32,704 nucleotides of DNA, taken from a virus (lineage: Duplodnaviria; Heunggongvirae; Uroviricota; Caudoviricetes). Made by a program: the position numbers and the translations under genes. The stretch is from positions 1 through 32,704 of IMG/VR virus record IMGVR_UViG_2778261231_000009. The stretch is one strand, 5' to 3'. Below are positions 1 to 32,704 of this stretch, piece by piece. The notes beneath the pieces were generated by a model. The model ran no database searches and was not told the origin of the DNA. It worked only from the letters and a program-made list of their open reading frames with translations. Within the stretch, counting starts at the first letter, position 1. The number at the start of each line of letters is the position of its first letter.

Positions 1-555
1 AATATTACCGTCTATAGCTATGATGGTGAAACTCGGGAATATATTTCCACTTCAAATGAATATCTTGCCGTTGGTGTTGGTATCCCGGCATATTCCTGTC
101 TGGATGAACCTGGTATACATAAGGCTGGTTATGCAATCTGTCGTTCGGCAGATTTAAACTCATGGGAATATGTGCCAGACCATCGCGGTGAAGTTGTCTA
201 TAACACCGAAACGGGAGAATCAAAAGAAATCACAGCTCCGGGTGATTACCCTGAAAATACAACCACTATCGCCCCGTTAACGCCATACGATAAATGGGAT
301 GGTGAGAAATGGGTGACGGATACCGAGGCACAGCATAGCGCCGCAGTAGACGCAGCAGAAGCACAGCGCCAGTCGCTGATGGATACTGCAATGGCTTCCA
401 TTAGTCTGATTCAGTTGAAATTACAGGCCGGACGGAAGTTGACGCCGGCAGAAACAACCCGACTTAACGCCGTGCTGGATTACATTGATGCGGTGACGGC
501 AACAGATACCAGCACCGCGCCTGATGTCATCTGGCCTGAGCTGCCGGAGGCGTAG
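1..555 (+). CDS. Tail fibre assembly protein (lambda Tfa / Mu U'-like), 5'-truncated by window edge
   Basis: Plus-strand frame 1 is open from nt 1 with no ATG; translation (…VYSYDGETREYISTSNEYLAVGVGIPAYS…SWEYVPDHRGEVVYNTETGE…VTATDTSTAPDVIWPELPEA) resembles lambda Tfa over its length, including the C-terminal DTSTAPD-IEWP-type motif. Track ORF 172..555 is the GTG-started tail of the same frame. Confidence 0.7.
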   Translation, partial: NITVYSYDGETREYISTSNEYLAVGVGIPAYSCLDEPGIHKAGYAICRSADLNSWEYVPDHRGEVVYNTETGESKEITAPGDYPENTTTIAPLTPYDKWDGEKWVTDTEAQHSAAVDAAEAQRQSLMDTAMASISLIQLKLQAGRKLTPAETTRLNAVLDYIDAVTATDTSTAPDVIWPELPEA

Positions 556-979
556 GCCATTCAATATCTGGTGCACTGGAGGTATCAACCAGCTCCAGTG
601 CATCCAGATAATCCAGCCACAAATTATATTGCGCCAGTTCCTCACCTTTCAGACGACCAATAGCGGCTTTACCGGGCCATTGCTTACTGTTCATGTATTC
701 GTTGGCCTGGTTAATTAGTAGCTGTCTTTCTGATTCAGTAATTTCAATAAGCTCTTCATGCGTGGGTGGAGGAATATCTGCCCACGCAGGCAGCCCATCA
801 TCTCCGGCAATACGGATTTTTCCTTGTGGCGGTTCAGCCATAAACTCACTGATAATATTCTGATTTACTTCCTTAGCGTCTGATAAATCCCATCCCTCTG
901 ATTTATATTTATCAATCATATCCACAGGGAAAAAAGCATTATGCCTTGCGCTATAAACATATTCGTTCATATAAATCAC
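527..979 (-). CDS. Tail fibre assembly protein (Tfa / Mu U-like)
   Basis: 150 aa; N-terminal YVYSARHNAFFP and C-terminal LWLDYLDALELVDTSSAPDIEWPTPP are typical of Tfa chaperones. Convergent with, and overlapping by about 29 nt, the plus-strand Tfa-like gene. Confidence 0.8.
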   Translation of the reverse strand: MIYMNEYVYSARHNAFFPVDMIDKYKSEGWDLSDAKEVNQNIISEFMAEPPQGKIRIAGDDGLPAWADIPPPTHEELIEITESERQLLINQANEYMNSKQWPGKAAIGRLKGEELAQYNLWLDYLDALELVDTSSAPDIEWPTPPAAQAR

Positions 980-990
980 CCTGAATAAAA

Positions 991-1656
991 TTACTCACCA
1001 ACAGCCCACCAACTGTAATTCATCGATACCGTGTCGCTGGTTGATGACGTTCTGTAAGCAGAATTAAAACCGGTTAATGTTGGGCCTTCTGCGGTCATCA
1101 CGAATCCCCGCCCAGCACCTAAAGGCGCACCACCATCACCAGAATGAGTAAGCATGGCGCAGTCCACTTTTTTAGGAAAAGGGATGCTGAATGTAATTCT
1201 CATTGTTTGCGTCGATAATGTCGGCGTAACCGCACCACGACCATATTGCAGGATTTTCCCGTTGGGTAATTTCATCCATCCATCACCACTGGCAAAAGAG
1301 GCCATGTCCGGTATCTGATTTTCCCCTGTCCCTACATCCCGTTTTGCCGCTTCTCCCAAACCAAGATTTTCGAGAGCCGTTTTCACGGTGCCATCCGATT
1401 TGATATCGCCAAACGGATTTGAGCGACTCAGTAACAGCGCTTTTAGTGCTGTTAATAACTGGTTTTGTTTAGAAGGATCAACATTAATACCGGCAGCGTT
1501 CAGGACAGTAATAAGCTCCGACTGCGCATCTCTGACAGCCCCCTGCACGTTATTCAGATGCTCAGCATCAACAATGGTCCCCAGCTCACCTGTGAGCGGA
1601 TTACCATCATGGAAAAGATTATCCGGCGTCTGCACCGGTGGCATTAAGGGCCGCAT
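991..1656 (-). CDS. Tail fibre protein (Mu S-like position), short
   Basis: 221 aa immediately upstream of the Tfa gene and downstream of the gp48-like gene; Gly/Ser/Thr-rich C-terminal half as in fibre tips; start overlaps the upstream stop. Confidence 0.6.
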   Translation of the reverse strand: MRPLMPPVQTPDNLFHDGNPLTGELGTIVDAEHLNNVQGAVRDAQSELITVLNAAGINVDPSKQNQLLTALKALLLSRSNPFGDIKSDGTVKTALENLGLGEAAKRDVGTGENQIPDMASFASGDGWMKLPNGKILQYGRGAVTPTLSTQTMRITFSIPFPKKVDCAMLTHSGDGGAPLGAGRGFVMTAEGPTLTGFNSAYRTSSTSDTVSMNYSWWAVGE

Positions 1657-2228
1657 TATTCATTCTCCTGATATGCGAAGTAGCAAAATGTATGGGCTGG
1701 TTTGAGATCACGGAAGACGTCTTCAATAATCGGATCACCAAACGTTGTCAGGCGCTCACCTGCAGCTGAACTGCCTGAGCGAAAGCGATAGGATTGAGTT
1801 CCTGAGTTCTGAATATTGACGCGCCAGACCCAGATAATGTCTTCAACCCAGAGGCGATCACCGGCGCGGCCAACTCCCGCCCTGAAAGGTTGCGGTTCAT
1901 CAATTGTGATGATGTAGCCAAGGTTGCTTGCCAACTGAGTAAAGTACGGAATACTGAGACCACCGACTTCAGCCAGTTTAGCCAGTACACGCTGCTGGCG
2001 TTGCTGGTATGTCGCACCTTCAGCAGGAGTAAGGTCCAGGACGCGTTCCCAGTCATACAAAAGGCTGCGTGCATAAAATGGAGTAACTCCACCTTCAACA
2101 AGCCCTGCAGACGCATCGAGAGTCTCAAAAACACCTGATTCAGATCGCAATGATGCATCAAGCAGAGGCTGGCCCGGGCTGTACGAAACAAGTGGCAGCA
2201 GACGATTTAACAGCGTGAAGTAGCTCAT
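1656..2228 (-). CDS. Tail/baseplate protein, Mu gp48 (R)-like, DUF2313-type
   Basis: 190 aa; position after the baseplate J-like gene; overlapping stop/start (translational coupling). Confidence 0.7.
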   Translation of the reverse strand: MSYFTLLNRLLPLVSYSPGQPLLDASLRSESGVFETLDASAGLVEGGVTPFYARSLLYDWERVLDLTPAEGATYQQRQQRVLAKLAEVGGLSIPYFTQLASNLGYIITIDEPQPFRAGVGRAGDRLWVEDIIWVWRVNIQNSGTQSYRFRSGSSAAGERLTTFGDPIIEDVFRDLKPAHTFCYFAYQENE

Positions 2229-3292
2229 AGCAGCTCTACCTCAACGTTTCCTAATTTGAGCCATTCGACTTTCGTGGCATCGATTATCGGTTGAATATTT
2301 GCCGATGGTGTAACGATGTCATAGTCGGTAATACCCGGAATTAGAGAAATCAATGTCCCCGCCTGGCTGCGAATAAAAGCCACTCCAGGCTCTCGGCGCG
2401 AGTCATCGTCCTCCAGCGTTCCGGCGACAGCCTGTTTGGCTGCTGCGAGGGTGATGCCCTCCAGTGATACCTTCACGAGGACGTCAAATGTACGGATGAC
2501 AGGTATGAGCACCAGCGTGTTTTTTGCTGTAACAGGCCGGACATCGTCAATGTGAGCCTGCACCCTGTCGATCACATCCTGAGATGGCAGCCCACCTGCA
2601 GACGTGATCACAACATCAACGGTACCCGGCCCCCGCCGCAAAGGGTAAACATATGCGGCGGATACGCCTGATACCTCAAGCGCCCAGCGTTTGTAATCAT
2701 ATTTATTGCCGCCTGCAGGAGGTCGGCGGATGATTTCAAGCAGACGAGCAAGCAGCTCTGCATCCGTTTCCTCATCTGTTCCGCCAGTCATCAGGCCTAC
2801 TGTCACTGTGCTGTCAAACCCATCAGGTGTTGTGGTCAGTGTGGCCGATGTGACGGAAGTGGTGTTACCAGTGGTTCCGGCCAGAGAAGACACTGCGTTT
2901 ACCGATGATTTTCCATCTGACCCGACAATAATATCTTCGGTTGTTGTCCACGAAACACTGTCGCGTTTGAACACAAGACCGGCAGCGGCCACCGCTCCTG
3001 GTTCGCCGGTAAACGTGGCAGGCCCGGAGGCGCTGTTGGCTGCTTTTTTGCTTAAACCACGTAAACGGGCGTGCAGATAGAGGAATTCCGAATCAGCAGT
3101 ATCCGGAAAGATCTGACGGACTATCCATCCCTGATGCTGATAAAGCCCCTCGGCAACACTGGCTACACTCGATGCCCGGATGTACCAGTCGCTGTCCGGG
3201 CCCAGCGTATCATCTGACAACTGCAGGAGATTTTTGATATCCCGCAGAATGTCAGTGCGTATTTGCGCGGCATTTTTGGTAATGAATGGCAT
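2225..3292 (-). CDS. Baseplate J-like protein (Mu gp47 / W-like)
   Basis: 355 aa; size and synteny between the gp46-like and gp48-like genes; resembles baseplate J family proteins. Confidence 0.8.
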   Translation of the reverse strand: MPFITKNAAQIRTDILRDIKNLLQLSDDTLGPDSDWYIRASSVASVAEGLYQHQGWIVRQIFPDTADSEFLYLHARLRGLSKKAANSASGPATFTGEPGAVAAAGLVFKRDSVSWTTTEDIIVGSDGKSSVNAVSSLAGTTGNTTSVTSATLTTTPDGFDSTVTVGLMTGGTDEETDAELLARLLEIIRRPPAGGNKYDYKRWALEVSGVSAAYVYPLRRGPGTVDVVITSAGGLPSQDVIDRVQAHIDDVRPVTAKNTLVLIPVIRTFDVLVKVSLEGITLAAAKQAVAGTLEDDDSRREPGVAFIRSQAGTLISLIPGITDYDIVTPSANIQPIIDATKVEWLKLGNVEVELL

Positions 3293-3642
3293 CAGCTGAC
3301 CTTAACCGGATATTTCCAGGTCTGCGGCGTTCCGCTCGCAGACGTGACGGTGATATGAAGCAGCATCCAGCCTTTTTGCCAGTGCTCTGCAGTAACGGAA
3401 ATGGACTGGGCGCGACCGTCGTCAATAATCGGTTGCAGGGCCTGCCGCGAATACTGCACCGCGAGTTGTTGAACGCGAGACACATCCTTTTCGCGGCGGA
3501 GTGTATGCAAAAGAGAGCCCAGAGTTGGATCAGCCCACCATGAGCCAAGGGGCGTCATCAGCCGTAAGTAGACGGCATTCGCTAAAGAGTCTGAGCTGTC
3601 GCCGGTATAATCGCCGGTCGTTGGATCAATCAACATTTCCAT
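3292..3642 (-). CDS. Baseplate wedge protein, GPW/gp25-like (Mu gp46 / V-like)
   Basis: 116 aa; synteny; start codon lies inside an 8-bp inverted repeat and is preceded by the conserved late motif. Confidence 0.75.
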   Translation of the reverse strand: MEMLIDPTTGDYTGDSSDSLANAVYLRLMTPLGSWWADPTLGSLLHTLRREKDVSRVQQLAVQYSRQALQPIIDDGRAQSISVTAEHWQKGWMLLHITVTSASGTPQTWKYPVKVS

Positions 3643-3663
3643 GCCGTAATACTACCGGCATGG
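3639..3663 (-). promoter_or_regulatory. Inverted repeat CCATGCCG-N9-CGGCATGG containing the V start codon; the spacer contains TAGTAT
   Basis: Seen directly on the plus strand (ccatgccgtaatactaccggcatgg). Confidence 0.5.
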
Positions 3664-3678
3664 AAATTTAAATTATCG

Positions 3679-3700
3679 GTGAAGGGGTTCAGTGGGTATT
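3679..3700 (-). promoter_or_regulatory. Conserved late motif, copy 1 (upstream of baseplate gene V): ATACCCACTGAACCCCTTCACC on the coding strand
   Basis: Same core as the other two copies; 24 nt to TAGTAT, then 6 nt to ATG; sits in the 89-bp Q-V intergenic gap. Confidence 0.6.
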
Positions 3701-3731
3701 GCTTTTGAAGGAGAACTTACGTTACCACAAA

Positions 3732-4337
3732 TTACATTTGCTGATTAGGTTTCTGCGTTGTGCCTGCATCACCGCCGTGGTCGTGGTCGTGACCGTCATA
3801 AGTCTCACGCATGGTGTTCAGCGTAGACTTGCCGTCAGCGACTTCATTACTGCCTTTCAGCAATGGTGTATCAAAATCTGCCCGCTCTGAGGCTGTGGTT
3901 TTATACGTTTTGGTATTAACAATATGTTGTTCGGTATTCACCGTGTGCTTTTTAGTATTAACGATATATTCATCGCAGTTTACTTCAATTATTTTTCCGC
4001 GCTTCAGAATAATGTTGCTTCCTTCATCCGAATAAATGGCAAGCTCACCACTTTTCAGGCTCTTTAGCCTGTATGCAGCGTGTTCCGTGGCAATCACCAC
4101 GCTATGACTGGTGCGCCCGTTAAGCGGGAGCACAATGGCTTTAGTCCCCCTGGGCGGGTTGGATGTAAAACCGTACTGCTGAAACATCTCCACATCCTGC
4201 AAAGACTCAGTGGCCAGACCTTTACCCTGAATGGTCTGAATATCACCACCGCTGTTAACCCTTATTAAAACGCCCCTGAAGGCCTTTCTTATACGGTTTA
4301 ACGCCGTGTTAATACGAGAGTCAATTTTGTTCCACAT
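3732..4337 (-). CDS. Baseplate spike / assembly protein V-like (Mu gp45 / Q-like) with His-rich C-terminus
   Basis: 201 aa; C-terminal HDHDHGGD resembles metal-binding spike apexes; internal tandem VNT-type peptide repeats. Confidence 0.75.
   Translation of the reverse strand: MWNKIDSRINTALNRIRKAFRGVLIRVNSGGDIQTIQGKGLATESLQDVEMFQQYGFTSNPPRGTKAIVLPLNGRTSHSVVIATEHAAYRLKSLKSGELAIYSDEGSNIILKRGKIIEVNCDEYIVNTKKHTVNTEQHIVNTKTYKTTASERADFDTPLLKGSNEVADGKSTLNTMRETYDGHDHDHGGDAGTTQKPNQQM
3912..3975 (-). repeat. Three imperfect tandem ~21-bp repeats inside the spike gene, encoding IVNTKKH/TVNTEQH/IVNTKTY
   Basis: Seen directly: ggtattaacaatatgttgttc / ggtattcaccgtgtgcttttta / gtattaacgatatattcatc on the plus strand; coordinates approximate. 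Confidence 0.5.
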
Positions 4338-5538
4338 CGATAATCTCCAGCTCTTTATTTACTTTGGCGCGACGCTTACGTGATTTGCGTTTTTTCGGAT
4401 AAGCATCCGGTATCCATATTCCATCCTCTTTGAGCCGCAGGGTGGTAATGGTGTTGTCTGGACGACCACCTGAAAACTCTCTTCCCATGAGGAAGTAAAT
4501 GTCATCAATGCCATGTGGCTCGCTTCGGACACGAATACGCTGGCCCGGTTGCCATAACTGACCGTTCTCCATGCGATGGCCTTTAACAATTACTGTCAGA
4601 TCAAACCCGTTCAGACGGGCGTCAGCCATGGCCTTTCTCGCGCGATAATCAACCTGCGCCTGATTATCAGCATCACCAGCAACCATAATCTGCGGACGAT
4701 AGAAAGGTACGGTACTGTCGCGAACGGTACTACGTAAGCCATGAAAGCCATTCTCTGCAGAGCCGGTGCTGTCATAAATTGCGTCGGCATCATCATCGTC
4801 TTCAGCCTCAGCGCTCTGATCATCAACGTCAATAACTTCCAGTCTTCCTGACTTTTTCCCCTGGCCGTGTCCCTGTGCCAGCATTGTCAGTTCAGAGAAC
4901 GCACCGGTAATGGATGACCGGTCACTGAGATCGAGGACATTATTTCCCCGACCGTCACGATTCAGAACAAGCGTGGCTACAGGGTCTTTTGTGTAATCCG
5001 GCCCTCCAATTACCAGCGTGCCATCTGGCTCAAACCATGGCCATAACCCGCGTGCAGCAGCTGCACGCTCAAGGGTATCCCACGCACGTTCTCCGGGCTC
5101 CACGCTGACCTTGTCATTACGCAGGGATGACTCAGCCTCGATGCGGATGTTCGTTATCCCCAGCGGTCTGACAACCTGGGCGATCACCTCTTCAAGACTG
5201 AGCTGGCGGGAGGTAAAAACGGGTGAAGCGCAGTCAACAAGCACGGCTGCACCATCGCGACCGGAAAGAGATAAAGAAACCTGCTGACGGGATACCCGGC
5301 GCTGAACCACATCCACCCGACCGGACATGACAACATCATTACCCACCCTGACCAGCACCGGCACACCACGTTTAATGGCCGGAGGGAAAATACCATCAGG
5401 CAGCCCAAGCGTTACGCTCCATGCATCGGAGGGGATCAGAAAATCGGAGTCAATCTGATAGCGGCTCCATGCACTATGGATTTTGCCATCAATAACCAGG
5501 CTCACTGTATTCTGCGAATCTTTATCTTGAGTAGGCAT
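4321..5538 (-). CDS. Baseplate hub protein, Mu P (gp44)-like
   Basis: 405 aa; synteny downstream of the N-like gene; start overlaps the upstream gene end. Confidence 0.8.
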   Translation of the reverse strand: MPTQDKDSQNTVSLVIDGKIHSAWSRYQIDSDFLIPSDAWSVTLGLPDGIFPPAIKRGVPVLVRVGNDVVMSGRVDVVQRRVSRQQVSLSLSGRDGAAVLVDCASPVFTSRQLSLEEVIAQVVRPLGITNIRIEAESSLRNDKVSVEPGERAWDTLERAAAARGLWPWFEPDGTLVIGGPDYTKDPVATLVLNRDGRGNNVLDLSDRSSITGAFSELTMLAQGHGQGKKSGRLEVIDVDDQSAEAEDDDDADAIYDSTGSAENGFHGLRSTVRDSTVPFYRPQIMVAGDADNQAQVDYRARKAMADARLNGFDLTVIVKGHRMENGQLWQPGQRIRVRSEPHGIDDIYFLMGREFSGGRPDNTITTLRLKEDGIWIPDAYPKKRKSRKRRAKVNKELEIIDVEQN

Positions 5539-6853
5539 TCAGAACGTCACCGGCTTTGATATTGTTAGGATTACGTAGTGTCGGATTGAGACGCAGCAAC
5601 TCGGCGGCGCGCGTGTAGTCCTCATACCACAGGTGGGCCAGCAAATGCAGGTTTGTGTCGGACAATACCACTCGCGTAGTCAGTGGTGGTCTGCTGGTAA
5701 TAACCGCTGAGCCCAGCTCCTGAACGGTCAGGGCGATATCCTTGAGACCTTCAACCACGGGTTGCCAGGTCACGCCACCAGGTGTTTCACCGGCACTCAG
5801 GTTTTGCGTATCAGCAGCAAAGGTGTCCCGCGTCTGGTCGATTGCCTCCTGAATGGCCGTCCTGGTGTCGTTGGTGATCTGCTCAATATCAACGGGAGAC
5901 AGAATATCGCTGATGCTGCTGTCACTGAGTATGTCGGAAGCATCAAGTGCCAGCTGGATTGCAACCTGAGTTTTTACCGCCGTTACCAGCTCGGTAATAT
6001 CCGAGGTTGATGAGCCTGCCGGAACGGCAACAGCAACCGTTTTTTTCCCGGTCACTATCTGCTGAGGTAATGCGGCCACATCCTGCAGATTGTTACGGCC
6101 ATTCTTCCAGTCGGCCATCACGATGCCTGCTGTGCCGGAAACGTCTGAGGACTGTGAATAGCTTCCTGGATTATTACTGACACTTGATTTGGACTGAAAC
6201 GACGTCAGACTCAGCGCACTCTGCAGGTCATTCATGAACGATTTTGGGTAATTAACAAAATCCGAGGTGGTACTGACAAATCCCGTCAGTTCCCCCTTAA
6301 GCACGGTCACCATATTCAGCGTCGTGGTTGCCAGCGATTTCGCTTTTTTCATCCACTTTTTCGCTGTACGCAGAGGCGAGAGAATATTGTCGATGGCCGT
6401 CTGGGCTTTCTCCAGAGCGGATTGCGCCTGGTTGAAAACGATATCAGCTTTCGACAGCGGGAAATCGCTGCCAAAGAAAGGCAGATTAAGTCCCCCCTGG
6501 ATAAAGACCACTTCGACAACGCAGTAATCAACGTTCTCCGCTTCATGCGATGCCTGATACTCAATGCACTGCATGCCCGTCATGGAGCCGAAAACGGGAT
6601 GAATTAATTCTGCGCTACCGCGAGTATCCAGTGCGGCCAGAAACGCCTGCAGCCGCACATCATAATCATCACCCCAGAAAAGGACTGTCATCCGCAGGTT
6701 ACGAGGCTTGCGGCCAAGATCATCAACATCACCACCGTCGACATAGGGATACTCATACGTCGCAATGTCGCGACTGGCGCTGTCACGGGTATTAACCACA
6801 TCAAAGCGGACGCCCCTGAATGAGGCATCCTGTAATGAATCTTCCCAGCTCAC
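5522..6853 (-). CDS. DNA circularisation protein N (Mu gp43)-like, with LysM-like C-terminus
   Basis: 443 aa directly after the tape measure; C-terminal …YEDYTRAAELLRLNPTLRNPNNIKAGDVLNAY looks LysM-like. Confidence 0.8.
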   Translation of the reverse strand: MSWEDSLQDASFRGVRFDVVNTRDSASRDIATYEYPYVDGGDVDDLGRKPRNLRMTVLFWGDDYDVRLQAFLAALDTRGSAELIHPVFGSMTGMQCIEYQASHEAENVDYCVVEVVFIQGGLNLPFFGSDFPLSKADIVFNQAQSALEKAQTAIDNILSPLRTAKKWMKKAKSLATTTLNMVTVLKGELTGFVSTTSDFVNYPKSFMNDLQSALSLTSFQSKSSVSNNPGSYSQSSDVSGTAGIVMADWKNGRNNLQDVAALPQQIVTGKKTVAVAVPAGSSTSDITELVTAVKTQVAIQLALDASDILSDSSISDILSPVDIEQITNDTRTAIQEAIDQTRDTFAADTQNLSAGETPGGVTWQPVVEGLKDIALTVQELGSAVITSRPPLTTRVVLSDTNLHLLAHLWYEDYTRAAELLRLNPTLRNPNNIKAGDVLNAYSR

Positions 6854-9018
6854 TGCGGGCCTCCTGTTGAGCCGCGAACGGATTGTTCGCCGTTGTATTC
6901 ATTAACAGCTGATGCAATTTCACGTCCGTCTAATACCAGCTTTGTGGTGAGGTTAATTGGTTGTGATTTTTGTTGCTGCTGGGGCAGCAGATAAGACGAT
7001 ACGCCTGTGGTTGCTGGTGTGTTTTGACCCATAGTGGCCGGTGAACTCCACCATGATTTGATCTCATCCACGGCATCCAGCAATCCGGGGCGGGCTTTTA
7101 CTGCATCCAGCATGCGTGCTGACTCACTGGAATAATTGTCGACCTTGAGTCTCGCACGCGCATCAGCATCGCCTCGCTCAACATGAACGAGCGGCGCATC
7201 CTGCATGCCCTGGTAGAGTGCCAGCGGAGCAGCAACGCGCCCCAGAACTTTACCTGCACCACCCCGGATAGCGGACCAGGTGCGCCCCAGAGCAGTACCG
7301 CCAGCAGACGGAACTCCCCCTGCAGGAGAACCAGGCATTTTTATTCCGCCCCCCGTCAGGAAATTGAGCCCGGCAAAAGCTACAGCCGCTGCTGTCATGG
7401 CTTTAATGCCAGTGGTGGCACCTGCAATCGCAGTGGTTAGCCCCGGATACTCACCAGCATATTTGGTTAATTTTTCTGAAATGTCACCCAGTGCATCAGA
7501 TAAAGGGGCAATGGAATCCATTGCAGCAAAGTCCTGTTCGTTTTTTAACTGCCCAGTTTTATATCCCGGCTGTTCTGACATTAAAGCAAAGTTGATGTTA
7601 CCGGCAGTATTACCAACTGGTAAATTACGTTGTGAATTCGCCCCTGAAATTACGTCTTGGGTGTATTTTTTATTCCCTCTATACCCTAATAGAGCTAATA
7701 GCGCCTGCTGGTCAGCAATAATTTTACCTATACCAGAACCTTCAAGAATCCTTGCTTGCGAACTAATTATATTTTTACGTTCACTTTCCGGTGCTGTTTT
7801 GAGTTTATCTTCAAGTTTTTTATATGCTGGATTTGAAGCCACAATTTTATCAACAATCGTGTTAAAAGCTTCTAGAGGATTTATACCGTTACCAACAGCT
7901 TTTGCAAGACTTCCAGAGAGGTCAATTCCTTTACCGCTGGGTAGTTTAATCCGTGCTGCAGCGTTAGCAGCATCCTGACTATTCAGCTTTAGCAATAAAT
8001 TATTAAGGTTATTACCGGCCTCGTCCGGTGAACCTGATGTAATAGCTGACGCCTGGTTCCAGCCAAGCAAGACGGCAAAATCATCAAGACCTTTCATACC
8101 GACATTGCCAGCACTGGCAAGCTGCTTAGGAAGCCACTTAGCCATATCTTTCAATTCAAAAGAGCCACTTTGCCCAGCGCTAATTGCCATATTAAGTGCA
8201 GACTCAAGCTCACCGTCTTTTATGCCAAACGATTGTTTTAATTTTATGGCAATATTTGCCAAATCTTCTGGAGCTGCGCCAGTGGCTGTGGAATATTTTT
8301 GAATTAAAGGTAGCATCACCTTTGCTGACGGCATATCAACAGCCCCTGAAGCCAGCATTGTATCAAGGGTATCAGCTGCTGATTCTTTTGTTCCGCCGCC
8401 AGCACGAACAGCCTGGCGAACCATCGAATCCATCTCCACCATTCCTTTTCTGCGACCTTGCAGCCCTTCATCGGCATAAGCAGTATTGGCCATCATTGCA
8501 AGTCGCTGGCGATAGTCCATCTGTTTAGATACTGGTGTTGATAATACGGCCCCTGCAGCAGCAATCCCGCCAGCAACTGCAGCAACGCTGGAACCAGCAG
8601 CACGAAAGCGCTGCATGCGCGTCATTGAGTCATTCACGCCACCAAGTTCAGTCCGCAGCGTTTTGACCCTGTCAGTCATGGCCCTGAAAGCCCGATTCTG
8701 CTCATTCGCGGACAGCATGCCTGTGCGGGTAAGGCGGTTGTAGGCCGCCATGGTCTGCTGTATTTCACGCTGAATATCGCGCTCAGAACGAATACCAAGG
8801 GTAGATCGCGCCGAGCTGGCGCGACGGTATTCCTCAATCAGAGAACGGGAGGCACGAATCGCTGTGGTTGAGTTCTGCTGGCGGGATTTCGCCAGCTCGT
8901 CATCGGTCTTTTGCGCCGCTTTGGTATCACGGCTGATGCCCTGCAGTGCCTGCTTAAGCACTTTAGAGCCGGTATCACGGGCAAGCAGCTGCAGCGCCAG
9001 TTGTAAGTTACGCGCCAT
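6850..9018 (-). CDS. Tail tape measure protein
   Basis: 722 aa, Ala/Gly-rich with coiled-coil character, immediately downstream of the frameshifted chaperone; contains an AT-rich central segment. Confidence 0.85.
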   Translation of the reverse strand: MARNLQLALQLLARDTGSKVLKQALQGISRDTKAAQKTDDELAKSRQQNSTTAIRASRSLIEEYRRASSARSTLGIRSERDIQREIQQTMAAYNRLTRTGMLSANEQNRAFRAMTDRVKTLRTELGGVNDSMTRMQRFRAAGSSVAAVAGGIAAAGAVLSTPVSKQMDYRQRLAMMANTAYADEGLQGRRKGMVEMDSMVRQAVRAGGGTKESAADTLDTMLASGAVDMPSAKVMLPLIQKYSTATGAAPEDLANIAIKLKQSFGIKDGELESALNMAISAGQSGSFELKDMAKWLPKQLASAGNVGMKGLDDFAVLLGWNQASAITSGSPDEAGNNLNNLLLKLNSQDAANAAARIKLPSGKGIDLSGSLAKAVGNGINPLEAFNTIVDKIVASNPAYKKLEDKLKTAPESERKNIISSQARILEGSGIGKIIADQQALLALLGYRGNKKYTQDVISGANSQRNLPVGNTAGNINFALMSEQPGYKTGQLKNEQDFAAMDSIAPLSDALGDISEKLTKYAGEYPGLTTAIAGATTGIKAMTAAAVAFAGLNFLTGGGIKMPGSPAGGVPSAGGTALGRTWSAIRGGAGKVLGRVAAPLALYQGMQDAPLVHVERGDADARARLKVDNYSSESARMLDAVKARPGLLDAVDEIKSWWSSPATMGQNTPATTGVSSYLLPQQQQKSQPINLTTKLVLDGREIASAVNEYNGEQSVRGSTGGPQ

Positions 9019-9021
9019 GGA

Positions 9022-9254
9022 TTATCTCCGTTTGCCGACTTTCTTCCGGCGTTGCGATTTGACAGTGCGGGTTGTACGGGTGGTGGTTTGCCCGGTTTTC
9101 TTTCCATGTAACCGGGCAAGCGCTTCGGTGTAGCCGTCGAGTTCCGTTCGGGTCATGCTTCCTATTTGTTGTTCACTGATCCCGTATCGCCCGAGGGCAA
9201 GGACGAGGGTTCGGTACCCGGTGAGCTTTTGTTCAAATCCATCCGCTTTTTTTT
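9022..9254 (-). CDS. -1 frameshift extension of the tail assembly chaperone (G-T-like fusion product)
   Basis: From the slippery site the -1 frame stays open for about 74 codons (…ADGFEQKLTGYRTLVLALGRYGISEQQIGSMTRTELDGYTEALARLHGKKTGQTTTRTTRTVKSQRRKKVGKRR) and stops at TAA (plus 9022-9024) 3 nt before the tape-measure ATG. Hand-translated. Confidence 0.55.
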
Positions 9255-9545
9255 AATGGCTTCAATCTGAGCATCGATGAGATCGAAATCATCATCATTC
9301 AGTTCGTTAAGTAACAGCTCTGCCGTGATTTCTTCCTTCTGCAGGTCTCCGAGGGAAGTAATTGCACACGCCATCACCGCAACGCGGTAATACATGTTTG
9401 CGGCTGCACCTTCGGTAGTGCCGCAGGCTTCATCGGTTGCCCGCAGCGCTTCAATGGTATCGCTCACCACAGGCAGCCTGACGGCAAAGTCAAAATGGAC
9501 TTTATCACCGCATTTAACGCCATATAAAAGTTGCTGCTTTTCCAT
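9162..9545 (-). CDS. Tail assembly chaperone (Mu gp41 / lambda G-like), zero-frame product
   Basis: 127 aa between tail tube and tape measure; contains the A_AAA_AAG slippery run near its 3' end. Confidence 0.7.
   Translation of the reverse strand: MEKQQLLYGVKCGDKVHFDFAVRLPVVSDTIEALRATDEACGTTEGAAANMYYRVAVMACAITSLGDLQKEEITAELLLNELNDDDFDLIDAQIEAIKKKRMDLNKSSPGTEPSSLPSGDTGSVNNK
9246..9254 (-). promoter_or_regulatory. Programmed -1 ribosomal frameshift slippery site (A_AAA_AAG within an A8 run)
   Basis: Minus strand reads ATT AAA AAA AAG CGG; identical heptamer to the E. coli dnaX slippery sequence; location matches the conserved chaperone frameshift of tailed phages. Confidence 0.6.
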
Positions 9546-9920
9546 TTATTCCTCCACCCGACGAAGCGCATTCATGGTGATATCGCGCTTCGCTTCGTTG
9601 TCGACGGTATACTGAGCCCCGACCTGAGTGCTGAAACAGTCCAGGTAAGAAACACGTTTACCGCTGCTGTTAAGTGGATACAGGGTGATTTTCGCACCTT
9701 CAATACCGCCCCAGTTCAGGTCGCCGGATTCCGGGATAACTACCGTAACGGTCAGCTGGATCTCTTCAATGCCACGGGAAAAACCTTTGGCACGTCCCGT
9801 TTTGTTCATCGTCTTAACCAGCTTGCGTCCAGTGGTCACATCTTCCTTGAGGTCAGTCACTTCAATTTCCTGGCCGTCGACTTCCATGACGATCGCGCCA
9901 ACATATTCTTCAAGGGCCAT
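9546..9920 (-). CDS. Tail tube protein (Mu M / gp40-like)
   Basis: 124 aa immediately downstream of the sheath gene; size and synteny. Confidence 0.8.
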   Translation of the reverse strand: MALEEYVGAIVMEVDGQEIEVTDLKEDVTTGRKLVKTMNKTGRAKGFSRGIEEIQLTVTVVIPESGDLNWGGIEGAKITLYPLNSSGKRVSYLDCFSTQVGAQYTVDNEAKRDITMNALRRVEE

Positions 9921-9933
9921 TATGGTTTACTCC

Positions 9934-11352
9934 TCAGAGCAGCAAATCAATTCGACCGGCAAAGACGTGCAGGCCATTCACAACATCCGCAGGGATGCGA
10001 CCGTTCAGCTGGTTAACATCCTGCAGATCGCGCTCTACAATAAGTCCGTTTTTGTTGGCATCCACCTCCTCGACAATCTCCAGCTCCTCCAGCTTGTAAA
10101 GCACATCAAGCAGTTCACTGCGCACCTTCGGAGGTGTTCTTGAGCTGAGCTTGTCGCGCGGGAATCGCAGAGCGATGCGTTCACGGCAGGCCTTGCGCAC
10201 ATAGTCCAGCGTTCGGATGGTGGTGATATCCAGCAGCGCCACATCATCCACGCCCTGGGCGTTTTTGGTGTAGGTGCTGATCGCGCGAACGATTTGCACT
10301 TTGTCACCGGGGCCAATCTCAAACGGCGTAAGACCATTCCGCAGGGCGTTCTCCTGCTCAGTTCGCCCTGGCTGACTCTCTACTGCAGTCACGTCCAGCG
10401 TGCTCATCGCAAGGGTGTTCAGCGGGCGTGCCGGGTCCTCTTCACTGGCGATAACAGCAGCATAGGCAGCGGCGATCTGCGCCGGTGTTTTTACCGAACC
10501 GCTATGCCAGCCCAGCGTGATACGTCCGTCATTAAGTGAAGCTGCCAGTGCAATGCCGGTGGAAAGCGACTTGCGCCACCCACCCACACCGATTGCGCCG
10601 CGCTGTTCCATCGCATTGCTGACGTTTGTCAGATGGTTACGCAGCGCCGTCATCGCCTCCTGGGTGGAGAACGGACAAACAACAATGTTATGACCTGCTG
10701 AGAACGCCGCTGCCAGCGCTGGCGTAATATCCGGATCAACATTGCCGCCTGCAAGCGTGGTGGTCGCCGCTGTGATACCCGCTGCCGTTACGCCGGAAGA
10801 GACAATAATGTCGTTACCAACCGCCCCTTTATGGCGGCAGGTCAGGGTCACTTCCCCCGCGTTTGCTGTTGCCGTCACTGGCAACCCGTCTTTCTGGGTA
10901 ATCAGTTCCGTCAGCGCTGCCGCAATGGTCTCCGCCGTATCTGCTGCCGAAATACCGACATCAATACGGGTACCATTAATGGTCACGCTCAGCTTCCCGC
11001 CGGAAGATGCTGTGCCGGTCAGGGCGATTTTGCCCGTCGCGGCTGTTGCAGTGGCCGCATCGCTGACCCCGACGATCTGCAGCTGCAGATAGGGGTAGGC
11101 ACCGATGGCCGCTGTGGCCATCAGATGCGCCAGCGAGCCACGGCCAAAGTACGTCGCAGCTTCTTCATCAGAGAAAACAGACTGAATGACAAGCGGTGCA
11201 GACAAACCGGAGGCCAGCATTGGCGCAATCATCAGCACCTTCTGGGTGTTACCTGGCAGGGTACGAACGGCCAGGCGGGTGTTGAACTCAATATACTGAC
11301 CCGGCTTGCGGTTCGTACCGATAGTGTCAAAGCTGATATTAGGACTGCTCAC
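9934..11352 (-). CDS. Contractile tail sheath protein (Mu L / gp39-like)
   Basis: 472 aa; size, synteny and Gly/Ala/Thr-rich composition typical of sheath proteins. Confidence 0.85.
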   Translation of the reverse strand: MSSPNISFDTIGTNRKPGQYIEFNTRLAVRTLPGNTQKVLMIAPMLASGLSAPLVIQSVFSDEEAATYFGRGSLAHLMATAAIGAYPYLQLQIVGVSDAATATAATGKIALTGTASSGGKLSVTINGTRIDVGISAADTAETIAAALTELITQKDGLPVTATANAGEVTLTCRHKGAVGNDIIVSSGVTAAGITAATTTLAGGNVDPDITPALAAAFSAGHNIVVCPFSTQEAMTALRNHLTNVSNAMEQRGAIGVGGWRKSLSTGIALAASLNDGRITLGWHSGSVKTPAQIAAAYAAVIASEEDPARPLNTLAMSTLDVTAVESQPGRTEQENALRNGLTPFEIGPGDKVQIVRAISTYTKNAQGVDDVALLDITTIRTLDYVRKACRERIALRFPRDKLSSRTPPKVRSELLDVLYKLEELEIVEEVDANKNGLIVERDLQDVNQLNGRIPADVVNGLHVFAGRIDLLL

Positions 11353-11560
11353 CGTTCACCTCCGCGCTGGGCTCGCTGCTTTTGCTTTTGGTGTTCTTGT
11401 CACTGCTGGTGACAATAATCAGATCACCGGCCATTACCTGACGCTGGTAATAAGCGGTGTTCTCCACCTCAAGGGGTTCCGCATCAGTAATGTAGCGGCG
11501 CGCATTATCTTCGCGCGGCACGCTCAACCCTCTGGCGGCTTTTACTTTAATTTTGCTCAT
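11339..11560 (-). CDS. Small tail-associated protein, Mu gp38-like
   Basis: Internal start MSKIKVKAARGL… chosen from track ORF 11339..11584 to minimise overlap with the upstream gene; synteny before the sheath. Confidence 0.55.
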   Translation of the reverse strand: MSKIKVKAARGLSVPREDNARRYITDAEPLEVENTAYYQRQVMAGDLIIVTSSDKNTKSKSSEPSAEVNGEQS

Positions 11561-12206
11561 GACTGATAATGTCCTCTGCTGCATTGTCTTTATCAGGCTG
11601 CTTAAGATCGTAACTGAGTCGGGTTCTCAGCCATGCCGGGTCATCGTCGGTAGTGGCACCGCCATAAATCCGGAACATATGGTCAGCATGGTCTTCCGGC
11701 GCAGCCGTGAGCGGGTAACGCCCGTTCTCCAGCGCCGACTCAATCCACTTTGTGTCGAACTCACAGGCAAAAACGGAAAATGCCTGAGATTCTATCTGGG
11801 TGTTGAAGAGCGTGCGCACGCGACCAGGGCTGAGCGGGTCGATTTTGATACCCGTATCGGCCATATCCTGACCCGACAGCAGACGACGAACGGCGGCGAC
11901 CAGAATATACGTCCCCACCTCCTGCACATGCGGCCCCCCCATTCGGGCCGCTTCTTCACTGCGCAGGCTGCGCTCGCCAACCACCACGACAAAGCGACCG
12001 TGGGTGACAAACCGTTGCCGTGCTGTGCTGTACGGCTCGGTTTTTTGTACCCCGCCGAAGGTCACCCAGACCGCAGGGAGCTGGCGCAGCACCTCCGCAG
12101 GTTCGCCGTCCAGCTCGCCGCCGTAGGAGCGCACGTTCTTCACCATACGCCCCATACCTTTACGAAGGCGCTCCACGATGGCTTTTTCGATATCCGTAAT
12201 CACCAT
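11547..12206 (-). CDS. Head-tail joining / tail completion protein, Mu gp37 (K)-like
   Basis: 219 aa; synteny between gp36-like and gp38-like genes. Confidence 0.7.
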   Translation of the reverse strand: MVITDIEKAIVERLRKGMGRMVKNVRSYGGELDGEPAEVLRQLPAVWVTFGGVQKTEPYSTARQRFVTHGRFVVVVGERSLRSEEAARMGGPHVQEVGTYILVAAVRRLLSGQDMADTGIKIDPLSPGRVRTLFNTQIESQAFSVFACEFDTKWIESALENGRYPLTAAPEDHADHMFRIYGGATTDDDPAWLRTRLSYDLKQPDKDNAAEDIISHEQN

Positions 12207-29478: not shown

Positions 29479-30372
29479 TTAATGGATCAGCATTTCAGCT
29501 ATCTGGTTGACGATATGACCGCTGACCGGAACATCATTCATCGCGCTGGTGCGGACCGCACCGCGCAGCAGCTTGAACAATCGGCGGGCGTTACCTTTTG
29601 ACGCATTGAACAGCGCTTTGCTCAGGTCTTCATTCAGGCCATCCGGGAGAACGCTGCTGGCGATGACGTCAATATCAGCACCCGGCAGGCTATGCCCGAG
29701 GTTGAGGGCGAAACCGACACGGCTATAGAGCTGTACGAGCTCACCGCGTTTGCCCTTGAGGTTCAGAATCAGGCGAGGCATACCAACCAGGACGATGCCG
29801 ATCCCCGTTTTGTCATGGATGCGGCGGATAGATTCCAGCGCACGCAGAGGGAGGTTCTCGGCTTCATCAATAATCAGCACGCGTCCGGAGTCGCGCAGCT
29901 TGTTGATGCAGGCCTCGCTGAGTTCGTGCATATTGCCGCGCGTACTGAGCCCCAGCAGGTTACAGAGCTCTTCCAGGACTACCCGTGCGGTGTAGCCAGG
30001 GTCTGCCTCAATCAGCAACGCATCCCGGTATTTGGAGACGTAGGCTTTGCAAATCATCGTCTTGCCCAGACCGGCTTCGCCGTAGAGCACGTTGATATCA
30101 CCTTCGACGTGTGCCATGCGTATAACATCAACGGCTTTGCGCGTTGTTGGGGTATCAACAAATTTGACGCTGATACGTGCCGAACGTTCTTTTTCATGCT
30201 GACGATCGATAAAGCTACGAATATCGTTTTCCAGCGATACAATATCGCCGTCGTATTTATTATTCAGATACTGGCTGATTACGGCCGAGCTCTTACCAAT
30301 GGCGCGGGCGACCTGTGTCTGGTTAAGACCTTTTGCTTTCATCAGTTCGACAAGTTCATTTTTAGCTGACAT
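29479..30372 (-). CDS. B: Transposition ATPase / target DNA activator (Mu B-like, AAA+)
   Basis: 297 aa; N-terminal HTH-like region (LNQTQVARAIGKSSAVISQYLNNKY), Walker A GEAGLGKT, Walker B-like VLIIDEAE; directly downstream of the transposase. Confidence 0.85.
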   Translation of the reverse strand: MSAKNELVELMKAKGLNQTQVARAIGKSSAVISQYLNNKYDGDIVSLENDIRSFIDRQHEKERSARISVKFVDTPTTRKAVDVIRMAHVEGDINVLYGEAGLGKTMICKAYVSKYRDALLIEADPGYTARVVLEELCNLLGLSTRGNMHELSEACINKLRDSGRVLIIDEAENLPLRALESIRRIHDKTGIGIVLVGMPRLILNLKGKRGELVQLYSRVGFALNLGHSLPGADIDVIASSVLPDGLNEDLSKALFNASKGNARRLFKLLRGAVRTSAMNDVPVSGHIVNQIAEMLIH

Positions 30373-30417: not shown

Positions 30418-32475
30418 TCAGAAGGTCGCTTTTTTATTGCCCTGACTTTTCAGCCATTCTTCACGCTCTGATTCGAACAGGAACACATGTTCCCGAGCAT
30501 CATTAATACGCTCTGCGTCCGATGGTATTAATGCGCCGAAATCAGGGTACATATCGCTTTCAGGAAGCAGGCCTCTTGCCTCTGCTTCAATCTCTTCCCG
30601 TTGTTCGTCGATGCGCTTCAGACGACGCTGGCGACGTTTCTCAACGGCGATATCCATCATGCTGGTTGGCAGCGCGGCACGCTTATTGCCGTTCCAGATG
30701 GCGGTGCAGACATAAGTACCGTCCATGCGACGAACGATGACGGCAGCAGGGTCGTGAATGTCATAGGCGACCCGGACTTCCTCACCGTCGACCTGTATCA
30801 GGTCAGCGCTGAAATACTGGTTATTCATCAGGTCAATCCAGCCCCGCTGGGCGGTGCGGCACATTTCCGGCATGAAGGCTTCACGAAGCTCGATATCCGT
30901 CAGATATTCAATATCGTCACCCTCAGTGGCCAGAACCTCGCGGCGGTACTGTGCTGGCGTCATATGCACACCATTACGTTTTGGTAGCTCGCTGTGCTCA
31001 TGCAGGTTGTTGTATTTGTCGACTTCCTCAGCAATGGTATCCAGCAGCATCTGCCACGACGGCAATTTACGCAGCGCGTTACGCTGTACGCTCGTGAGTT
31101 CGCGCCCATTCTCCTGAGCCTTAATCGCTGACTGGATAGCGCGACCGGTCATCCGCACATGCTCACGGTCGGCCCCGAATCCATTGTAAGTATCAAATTT
31201 ATTGGCAATCGCTCTCGGTATTACGGCGTTCAGTCGTTCGATAATCCCGCGTGACTGCGGTCGACCCGGAATACTGGTCGGGTGATCAATACCCATGCGA
31301 GTGAAAATACCGGTGATATCAGCATCCAGCGTTTTATTGGTTTCACCGCCACCGTTATCCGAATAGACAAAAAGAGGTTTTCCGTGGAATTTCATGGCGT
31401 AGCGATAGGCATCCGCTACGGCGATGACGTTCTCTGAGAGCGCCAGGCTCCAGCCCACCAGGTAGCGGGTGCGGCCATCGATAACCAGCGTCAGTTCAGG
31501 TGTGAATGGACGACCATGGACCGGATGAGCAACTTTCATATCCAGCGATTTACCATCCGCAATCCAGCAACCATTTACTGGCATTTGTGACCAGTCACGC
31601 TTCTGATAAACCTCATAAGCCAGAGCCGCTGAACCGCTGATACGGCCGCGAGCGCGTTCACGTTTTGGTAGCTTTTCCATCGCCCGACGCACGGCATCAT
31701 AAGACGGACAGACGGCGAGCATCGCTGGCTGTCCCGCATAAATAGCCTGCCATTCAGTCTTGAATGAGCGCCACGCATCCACCAGAGAAGGGCCTGAGAG
31801 TTTCCGCCAGTGGGCGAGAAAATCAGGGAGCCACTTAATCTGCTCAGGCTTACGCGCTTTAAGATGGCCTGGTGCCAGCAAAGCCAGGCGTTCGATACCT
31901 GGACGTGTAGAAAGGTAAACAGACAGCCATTCCTGAAGTGTTCTTTCGCCCACGCCACGACGGCTGGAACCTTTACGCGCATTGGCAATATCAGCCGCAG
32001 CCTGGATGTTTTCCGGCAACGTGCCCTTGCGTGACTCTTTGGCGATGAACTCAACCGCCGATGCGCGTGACATACCGATATCCCGAAGACGCTCAACCTC
32101 TGCGGCTAATAATGCGCGGGCGTCGGCGATCTGTTTCTGGCGTTCGGTAAGGTCAGAGACCTCACGCTCCAGCAATACCGGGCACTGCCGCAATAACGTC
32201 AGTTCGTCGCGGGTCGTGGTGACTTCCCGCTTTGGTGCAGTCGGCGCTGATGAACAATCAGACTGTTTCAGCACCTCGCGATAATGCCGGGCTTTGACTA
32301 TTTCACGCGCCTGTTCAGGCAGGCAGTCGATGTGGTACTCGAATGCTTTGCTGCCAGCACGTTTGCGAACCAGTTCAGGGGAGTTGCCTGCACTTTTTTT
32401 AAGGCTGTATCGCAGTCCTTGTTGTGTTGTTGGCAGTCCAGGGACGCCAACTAATTCGTTAACAGTCACGAACAT
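30418..32475 (-). CDS. A: DDE transposase (Mu A-like)
   Basis: 685 aa; N-terminal DNA-binding region, central integrase-like catalytic core; resembles MuA; ATG overlaps the ner stop. Confidence 0.9.
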   Translation of the reverse strand: MFVTVNELVGVPGLPTTQQGLRYSLKKSAGNSPELVRKRAGSKAFEYHIDCLPEQAREIVKARHYREVLKQSDCSSAPTAPKREVTTTRDELTLLRQCPVLLEREVSDLTERQKQIADARALLAAEVERLRDIGMSRASAVEFIAKESRKGTLPENIQAAADIANARKGSSRRGVGERTLQEWLSVYLSTRPGIERLALLAPGHLKARKPEQIKWLPDFLAHWRKLSGPSLVDAWRSFKTEWQAIYAGQPAMLAVCPSYDAVRRAMEKLPKRERARGRISGSAALAYEVYQKRDWSQMPVNGCWIADGKSLDMKVAHPVHGRPFTPELTLVIDGRTRYLVGWSLALSENVIAVADAYRYAMKFHGKPLFVYSDNGGGETNKTLDADITGIFTRMGIDHPTSIPGRPQSRGIIERLNAVIPRAIANKFDTYNGFGADREHVRMTGRAIQSAIKAQENGRELTSVQRNALRKLPSWQMLLDTIAEEVDKYNNLHEHSELPKRNGVHMTPAQYRREVLATEGDDIEYLTDIELREAFMPEMCRTAQRGWIDLMNNQYFSADLIQVDGEEVRVAYDIHDPAAVIVRRMDGTYVCTAIWNGNKRAALPTSMMDIAVEKRRQRRLKRIDEQREEIEAEARGLLPESDMYPDFGALIPSDAERINDAREHVFLFESEREEWLKSQGNKKATF

Positions 32476-32476
32476 G

Positions 32477-32704
32477 TCACAGGTCCTTGTTGTAACGGCT
32501 TGGCCAGATACTGGCGGGTTCTAAATTGAGAGCATTTGCAATAATGCGCTCTCCTTTTGGATAAGAGCGTGCCAGCGCATTTTTCAGCGTGTCGGGTTTT
32601 AGTCCCGCGCTGGCGGAAAGGCCGCGCATAGTGACGCCACGCTTGTGCAGCTCGGCGACAATATCAATGCGATGCCAGTCACGCTGTACTTCATTTATTT
32701 CCAT
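32477..32704 (-). CDS. ner: Ner-like DNA-binding regulator
   Basis: 75 aa, same length as Mu Ner, with shared …RDWHR-D…L-K…GLS…TL-NAL-R--PKGE-IIANAL…IWPSRY… pattern; its ATG is the last three bases of the window. Confidence 0.85.
   Translation of the reverse strand: MEINEVQRDWHRIDIVAELHKRGVTMRGLSASAGLKPDTLKNALARSYPKGERIIANALNLEPASIWPSRYNKDL

Follow-up and report, generated by a model that had tools for sequence, protein, structure and literature searches.

The left end of the sequence studied here raises the question of whether a tail-fibre gene that is followed by two converging tail-fibre assembly genes belongs to a switch of host range by DNA inversion and, if so, which of the known types of switch it represents. 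The sequence is a stretch of 32,704 nt from a tailed phage, and we refer to the whole of it as the window. An initial annotation of the window had taken the left-end genes for an invertible module resembling the G segment of phage Mu. In our view it is highly probable that positions 1–1376 are the fibre-proximal three quarters of an invertible host-range segment of the Din family (Hin/Gin/Cin/Pin), carried by a Mu-like prophage of E. coli. The gene arrangement, the crossover site, the break in homology at the core of this site, the architecture of the locus in relatives and the existence of a protein of the flipped type were observed directly and are described below.

A Mu-like prophage of E. 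coli at a contig end

The backbone of the window is that of a Mu-like transposable prophage. It contains MuA (30418–32475), MuB (29479–30372) and Mu-type head and tail genes, and the Pfam domains Mu-transpos_C, AAA_22/TniB, Gp36/37, Gp45-48, GemA and Mor were found along it. Besides MuA and MuB, the features of a Mu-like transposable phage include varied insertion sites, the flanking host genes being different in every genome with a related prophage, and a shared end reading ...CA. The host flank past the phage left end is E. coli sequence that matches strain 730V1 at 100% identity over 8.7 kb; the prophage interrupts the csrD region.

Only one complete E. coli genome matched the backbone, at 94%. 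In the phage collection, nothing matched positions 1–12000 outside the cassette described below, and the nearest MuA was that of Klebsiella phage ST405-OXA48phi1.1, with 68% amino-acid identity. The contig collection records the gp48 protein of this lineage in 866 blocks. The fibre protein, in its exact 221-aa form, is recorded from one contig only, NNZM01000005.1 of assembly GCA_002545375.1, and position 1 of the window is position 1 of that contig. The module had been described as cut by the window edge, and it is indeed incomplete there, with tfa' lacking 16 codons only; the edge, however, is the physical end of NNZM01000005.1, so that this record offers no leftward extension.

Organization of the fibre and assembly genes

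The features of the left end are listed in Table 1. The open reading frames confirm the arrangement as first described, namely a fibre gene and tfa on the minus strand, a convergent tfa' on the plus strand that overlaps tfa by 29 nt, and a 5' end of tfa' that lies beyond the edge. The gp48-like gene is situated directly upstream of the fibre gene, and this order matches that in both Mu and e14. Pfam PF21882 covers residues 129–220 of the fibre protein, and the two assembly proteins match Caudo_TAP (Pfam) with E=2e-31 for tfa and E=2.6e-32 for tfa'. The two Tfa-like proteins differ, as had been noted in the initial annotation: they share 35% identity, which is confined to the C-terminal 74 residues.

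The start of tfa is more likely the ATG at 970 than the GTG at 979, because an AGGGTGA ribosome-binding site precedes the ATG and annotated relatives use it. At the equivalent of tfa, a 147-aa tail fiber assembly protein is annotated in a P2-like prophage (L001) and in an e14-like prophage (L002), and in the same two prophages tfa' is identical to the 3' 555 nt of an annotated 603-nt gene. Since tfa is co-oriented with the fibre gene, it would be expressed in the present orientation. The 29-nt overlap recurs in e14, as it does in all related cassettes of the e14 type that were examined. Scans of positions 1–2400 for promoters and terminators gave results at chance level, an Rfam scan of the window returned no matches, and NCBIfam provided no equivalog for the fibre or Tfa proteins.

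Table 1 Features at the left end of the window and their coordinates
Feature	Coordinates	Strand	Details
tfa', U'-like tail-fibre assembly gene, silent orientation	1-555	+	184 codons; first 16 codons missing
tfa/tfa' convergent 3'-end overlap	527-555		29 nt
tfa, U-like assembly chaperone	527-970	-	147 aa, from ATG; mechanical ORF 527-979 from GTG
Visible part of the putative invertible segment, contig end to core dinucleotide	1-1364		1364 nt of an expected ~1.87 kb
Fibre gene	991-1656	-	221 aa; Gp53-like_C domain
Sv, variable, putatively invertible 3' part of the fibre gene	991-1362	-	Residues 99-221; receptor-binding Gp53-like_C end
Crossover site TTCTCCCAAACC AA GATTTTCGAGAG	1351-1376	+	Inner half 1351-1362, core 1363-1364, outer half 1365-1376
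Sc, constant 5' fibre part outside the putative invertible segment	1365-1656	-	Residues 1-98
Mu gp48-like baseplate gene (YmfQ family)	1656-2228	-	Phage_Mu_Gp48, E=1.2e-27
Mu gp47-like baseplate J gene	2225-3292	-	Pfam Baseplate_J, E=2.3e-61

A crossover site within the fibre gene

The crossover sites had been described as not visible in the window. One of them is in fact present at 1351–1376, inside the fibre ORF, and matches the pixL site of e14 at 25 of 26 bases. It has the composition of a Din-family site, that is, two 12-bp half-sites around a 2-bp AA core, and stands at the boundary between the constant and variable parts of the fibre. This 26-bp site also falls within the interval (991–1656) for which one copy of an inverted repeat had been predicted. 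In a published table of Din-family sites, pixL is given as TTCTCCCAAACC AA GGTTTTCGAGAG (Table 3, PMC3241671), and we confirmed this sequence in the K-12 e14 genome. The single mismatch to pixL is an A for G at the second base of the outer half-site, and this A is common to all the sibling prophages considered below. The site at 1351–1376 was the sole pixL-like match in the window, and 100 shuffles yielded 0 matches. On the minus (coding) strand it encodes LENLGLGE, with the core TT supplying bases two and three of the Leu98 codon. No second crossover site occurs within the window, and the contig ends at position 1.

The locus in sibling prophages

We then turned to 11 siblings of the prophage, comprising ten prophages with an identical gp48 protein (L012–L021) and an E. 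coli assembly (L022) that is 99.6% identical over a shared 10.3 kb. A partner site, an alternative fibre 3' segment and an invertase of the Gin family had been predicted to lie beyond the window edge, and all three were found beyond tfa' in every one of the siblings. The full set in each of the 11 consists of the fibre gene, tfa, the convergent tfa', a fibre 3' segment that lies silent on the other strand, the inverted site, the invertase and the phage right end. Wherever both assembly genes are called full length, they overlap by 29 nt. The fibres of the siblings range from 196 to 367 aa.

The invertase ORF is intact in all siblings, with a length of 186 or 193 aa, and in ten of the 11 (all but L020) the protein has 186 aa and belongs to the Resolvase family. 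Residues 1–185 of the sibling invertase align to Mu Gin (PDB 3uj3, E=2e-55), and Ser9 and the KLDRxGR motif are kept. It shows 49% identity with Gin, 52% with PinE and 70% with the invertase adjoining the L002 cassette. Where the invertase has 186 aa, the sequence of the inverted site is ...AACC AA CCTTTTGTGGAT, and ~97 nt separate it from the invertase gene; from the outer half-site to the phage end these ten siblings are nearly invariant, and their inner half-sites and cassettes differ. The partner site was also present in the cassettes of L001, L002 and Citrobacter phage Omnitron (L004), and its AA core could be read in these three as well as in the ten siblings whose invertase has 186 aa.

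The right end of the siblings lies ~125 nt after the invertase stop, ends in ...CGCGCTACA and gives way to unrelated host DNA. No com or mom gene follows the sibling invertase. Overlapping gene calls had hinted that attR might lie inside the invertase ORF, and this was rejected, as in the alignment the phage end lies ~125 nt past the stop codon.

Other relatives differ from this arrangement. A 94%-identical relative (L003) has an invertase, a single fibre/Tfa set and no Din-type site, so members of the lineage can be without the invertible arrangement. A 17-nt inverted repeat in L003 was considered as a crossover pair and rejected: one arm overlaps the ribosome-binding site and start codon of the invertase, and neither arm resembles a Din site. 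A scan of species-representative genome contigs gave distant relatives only, from Kosakonia, Trabulsiella, Chromobacterium, Xenophilus and Craterilacuibacter, and no invertase was found within 6 kb downstream of gp48 in them. The switch thus characterizes the E. coli lineage and is not shared by all relatives. Some of the distant relatives carry tandem fibre genes on the same strand.

These comparisons bear on whether the window might hold a fossil switch, in which the segment is now fixed and the partner site, Sv' or the invertase has been deleted or inactivated. Such a history would fit with the missing part lying off the contig, with L003, which has an invertase but no alternative cassette or recognisable site, and with e14 of K-12, where the silent stfE is annotated as a pseudogene. 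Nevertheless, we consider it improbable, since all of the siblings keep intact sites together with their intact invertase ORF, the visible site, the fibre ORF and both tfa ORFs of the window are intact, and cassette copies that are 100% identical to it adjoin intact invertases.

A break in homology at the core of the site

Two independent sets of relatives place a break in homology at the core of the crossover site. In the first set, copies of the cassette occur in heterologous elements. Positions 1–1364 are 100% identical in L002, which is inserted beside dusA, and show one mismatch (99.9%) each to the P2-like L001, a lambdoid prophage of strain 730V1 (L026) and phage Omnitron. All four part from the window at 1365 or 1366; the L001 cassette is 99.85% identical to positions 1–1370. 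Each of these four elements has both sites, with an invertase next to them. With respect to the local fibre gene, the near-identical cassette lies in the same orientation as in the window in L001 and in the opposite orientation in L002 and L026.

In the second set, the ten prophages with an identical gp48 protein are 99–100% identical to the window from ~1338–1363 rightward, and to the left of the breakpoint their sequence is unrelated. For example, L013 is 100% identical over the constant part, starting at 1363, and the identity of L016 reaches further left, to 1302. Sc is 99–100% identical in all siblings, whichever cassette follows. As both sets place the break at this point, the core dinucleotide at 1363–1364 is, on sequence grounds, the real boundary.

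A boundary of this kind could also result from an assembly chimera, in which the Mu-like constant region was misjoined to the near-identical cassette of another prophage in the same genome. Strain 730V1, to which the host flank is 100% identical, carries at least two cassette copies with 99.9% identity, located in a P2-like and a lambdoid context; the contig breaks off within the cassette, and its exact fibre is the one recorded from a single contig; and some siblings share ~60 nt just inside the site (e.g., L016, back to 1302). We regard a chimera as very unlikely, since right past the core, at 1365/1366, none of the heterologous copies has the outer half-site of the window; a wrong join would therefore need the true cassette to share a full k-mer with this one just inside the site. 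Even if misjoined, the locus would in reality be an invertible cassette, which is what all siblings have.

A protein of the flipped type

We joined Sc (1656 down to 1365) at the core to the alternative fibre end of L002, which comes after tfa' in that cassette. The reading frame was kept, and the resulting protein has 252 aa and a tail-collar end. A search of a collection of 5.8 billion protein clusters retrieved exactly this protein (P0001, 100% identity and 100% coverage), which is encoded in the sibling L022 and in a metagenome scaffold (L023). The fibre of the window and P0001 are identical over residues 1–102, and their identity ends after residue 102. The backbone around P0001 is 99.64% identical to positions 1350–11656. 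In the P0001 loci, the homologue of tfa' (96% nucleotide identity) is inverted with respect to the window and placed after the fibre gene. Together with the two orientations of the near-identical cassette described above, the occurrence of P0001 on this backbone is indirect evidence for inversion.

L022 was also considered as a pure flip of the window, and this was rejected. Only the half with Sv' and tfa' matches, and the other half is another allele, with amino-acid identities of 34% for Tfa and 43% for Sv. The homology of L022 to the window stops at ~589, inside the conserved C-terminal Tfa motif. Among the complete E. coli genomes in the collection, none has this backbone with this cassette in either orientation.

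Comparison with known invertible segments

The P segment of e14 in E. coli K-12, which is served by the invertase PinE, has the gene order ymfQ, stfP (ycfK), tfaP, tfaE, stfE, pinE, and the same order is seen here as far as the contig reaches and, past its end, in the siblings. Both systems have a split fibre gene, a convergent tfa' with a 29-nt overlap and an AA core, and their sites differ at one of 26 bases when the window is compared with pixL. Furthermore, tfa' is 90% identical to tfaE at the nucleotide level, and the fibres are of similar length (~210–250 aa). Inversion of the e14 segment has been demonstrated experimentally by sequencing and PCR (PMC4272514). On the other hand, e14 is a lambdoid remnant, whereas the backbone here is that of a Mu-like transposable phage. 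The expressed Sv and tfa are another allele than stfP/tfaP, with blastn matching only tfaE and the site region, and the invertase of the lineage is just 52% identical to PinE. The invertase-proximal outer half-site is CCTTTTGTGGAT in the siblings, in contrast to CGTTTATGAAAA in pixR of e14.

In Mu, the G segment and its surroundings are arranged as gp47, gp48, S, U, U', S', gin, com, mom, and Gin, which cuts via Ser9, inverts the segment and thereby sets the tail fibre proteins and the choice of host (PMC3575834). The likeness to Mu lies in the transposable myovirus backbone, in the order of gp47, gp48 and a split fibre gene with its chaperone and an inverted second chaperone gene, and, in the lineage, in an inverted fibre end and a full-length Gin homologue near the right end. 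Unlike in Mu, the expected segment is ~1.9 kb and not 3 kb, the fibre has 221–252 aa and not 504 aa, the core is AA and not GA, and the tfa genes overlap by 29 nt, in place of the 28-nt gap between U and U' of Mu. The backbone, although Mu-like, is distant from Mu itself: MuA is far removed from its Mu counterpart, and no nucleotide similarity was detectable between Mu 29500–36717 and positions 1–2300. The lineage also differs from Mu in that its invertase is not followed by com or mom and the right end comes ~125 nt past its stop.

The C segment of P1 with Cin and the invertible H-gene cassettes of P2-like prophages follow the same logic, in that a Din-family invertase acts on 26-bp sites whose core is AA and each alternative fibre end comes with its cognate chaperone. 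The constant fibre parts and the virion modules are different here. In a systematic survey, tail-fibre and tail-fibre-assembly genes were enriched at predicted programmed inversions (PMC9881135).

Judged from these comparisons, the locus is probably an already well-known kind of switch, with short fibres and a cassette of the e14 P type (pix) carried on a Mu-like backbone. With regard to the initial annotation, the site, the breakpoint and the relatives uphold an invertible segment, and the type has to be changed from Mu G (gix) to e14 P (pix).

Proposed organization and operation of the switch

In the model that follows from a Din-family segment, the 26-bp site would split the fibre gene such that Sc (its first 98 codons) falls outside the segment, with Sv and tfa inside it in the expressed orientation. 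On the opposite strand, tfa' and a second fibre end (Sv') located off the contig would be silent. By analogy with the siblings, the missing part would amount to ~1.3 kb, made up of ~0.5 kb of segment, the inverted site, a spacer of ~100 nt, a gene for a 186-aa serine invertase and ~125 nt to the right end. If the whole L002-type cassette is carried, ~512 nt of segment and ~0.8 kb with the site, the invertase and the phage end would be missing, giving a segment of ~1.87 kb and a prophage of ~35 kb. The off-contig sequence expected on this model would be CCTTTTGTGGATTGAGATTTTTAATG, then the 561-nt invertase gene, then ...CGCGCTACA.

In Hin, Gin and Cin, the 5' part of the invertase gene contains a Fis-dependent recombinational enhancer that acts in cis. 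After cutting both sites at the AA core, the predicted invertase would rotate the strands and join them anew. Inversion would fuse Sc in frame to Sv', with tfa' behind it, and might thus give rise to particles with a different receptor specificity. We infer that the prophage of the window retains the partner site and the invertase, and that its segment does invert.

Cassette exchange and implications

The 1364-nt cassette is found with 0–1 mismatches in Mu-like, P2-like, lambdoid and e14-like prophages as well as in a Citrobacter phage, and its copies diverge within 1–2 nt of the AA core. Cassette boundaries that fall exactly at the core dinucleotide across unrelated phages are compatible with invertase-mediated exchange between prophages. 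We tentatively raise the possibility, which at present appears rather doubtful, that the cassette moves between co-resident unrelated prophages by invertase-catalysed exchange at the core of the site and not by homologous recombination.

The truncated tfa' at the end of this contig probably marks a standard host-range switch, which by itself matters little beyond annotation. In practical terms, a '221-aa phage tail protein' and the orphan fragments next to it in such prophages should be read as one switchable gene, and invertible segments, together with multiple near-identical copies, break short-read assemblies. Regarding the phages themselves, the comparisons show that a common lineage of Mu-like prophages in E. 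coli uses e14-type (pix-like) cassettes together with a diverged homologue of Gin. The sharp breaks at the core dinucleotide illustrate cleanly, in natural sequences, that unrelated phages exchange cassettes. If the exchange is indeed catalysed by invertases, the Din invertases of polylysogens would act in trans as shufflers of cassettes across phage families, and chromosomal inversions could occur as a side effect.

Exchange of the tail-fibre cassette

The 1364-nt cassette, the part of the invertible tail-fibre segment that is visible in the window, recurs with 0-1 mismatches in P2-like, e14-like, and lambdoid prophages and in a Citrobacter phage, as sequence comparison revealed. Each copy was found to diverge no more than 1-2 nt from the crossover site's AA core, and the exchanged unit thus seems to be bounded by the recombination site itself. 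The prophage lies in the csrD region, and its host flank (L009 1-8758) matches E. coli O19:H7 strain 730V1 at 100% identity. The Mu-like prophage is missing from strain 730V1, yet this strain carries the same cassette in at least two copies (L001 and L026). Additional cassette copies in the strain from which the window derives would account for the break of the contig within tfa', at window position 1.

Homology of the window to other cassettes ended variably, shortly past the overlap of the convergent chaperone genes tfa and tfa' (window ~589-802, at the convergent tfa 3' ends). These differing end points suggest that the two halves of the segment reassort independently, probably through recombination within the conserved region encoding the Tfa C-terminus.

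Coordinates of cassette copies and of the ends of homology to other cassettes
Feature	Record	Position
Cassette copy	Window	1-1366
Cassette copy	L001 (P2-like prophage)	6001-7370
Cassette copy	L002 (e14-like prophage)	6001-7364
Cassette copy	L004 (Citrobacter phage Omnitron)	1321-2689
Cassette copy	L026 (lambdoid prophage)	6990-8353
End of homology	L022 (sibling Mu-like prophage)	window ~589
End of homology	e14	window 682
End of homology	Klebsiella, Salmonella, and E. coli phage records	window 729-802

Fibre loci of related prophages

A related Mu-like prophage in E. coli FDAARGOS_1303 (L003 6046-8107), with a 94% identical backbone, encodes a Pin-like invertase that shares 84% identity with PinE, the e14 invertase; beside it are just one fibre, of 338 aa, and one Tfa. 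As neither a convergent second fibre/Tfa set nor a Din-type site was found in this region, the invertase appears to be orphaned. A 17-nt inverted repeat is present in L003; it overlaps the start codon of the invertase gene and is probably fortuitous.

In loci from Chromobacterium and Xenophilus (L029-L031, positions 6.6-10.6 kb), distant relatives of the Mu-like baseplate gene gp48 are followed by two to three fibre genes on the same strand, each repeating an N-terminus similar to Sc, the constant 5' fibre part. No invertase follows there, and such tandem genes may be an alternative means of carrying several receptor-binding proteins.

Prophage ends and the invertase module

A Ner-like (HTH_35) gene has its start codon exactly at the right edge of the window (region 32477-32704); the repressor gene and the left end of the phage lie beyond this edge, the latter approximately 1 kb further along the contig. 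In the sibling Mu-like prophages (L012-L022), the invertase is the final gene, and the conserved right end, located ~125 nt 3' of its stop codon, reads ...AAAAAATCGCCGCGCTACA, followed by host DNA that differs in each genome. In contrast to Mu, which has com and mom, these siblings have neither. In genome GCA_050191705.1 this phage is present twice, at different sites (L019 and L020), and both copies have the same cassette (1786 nt compared, 100% identical). One of them has a different invertase, a 193-aa protein with 45% identity to the usual one of 186 aa, and its outer half-site is also different. The invertase end is thus replaceable as a module.
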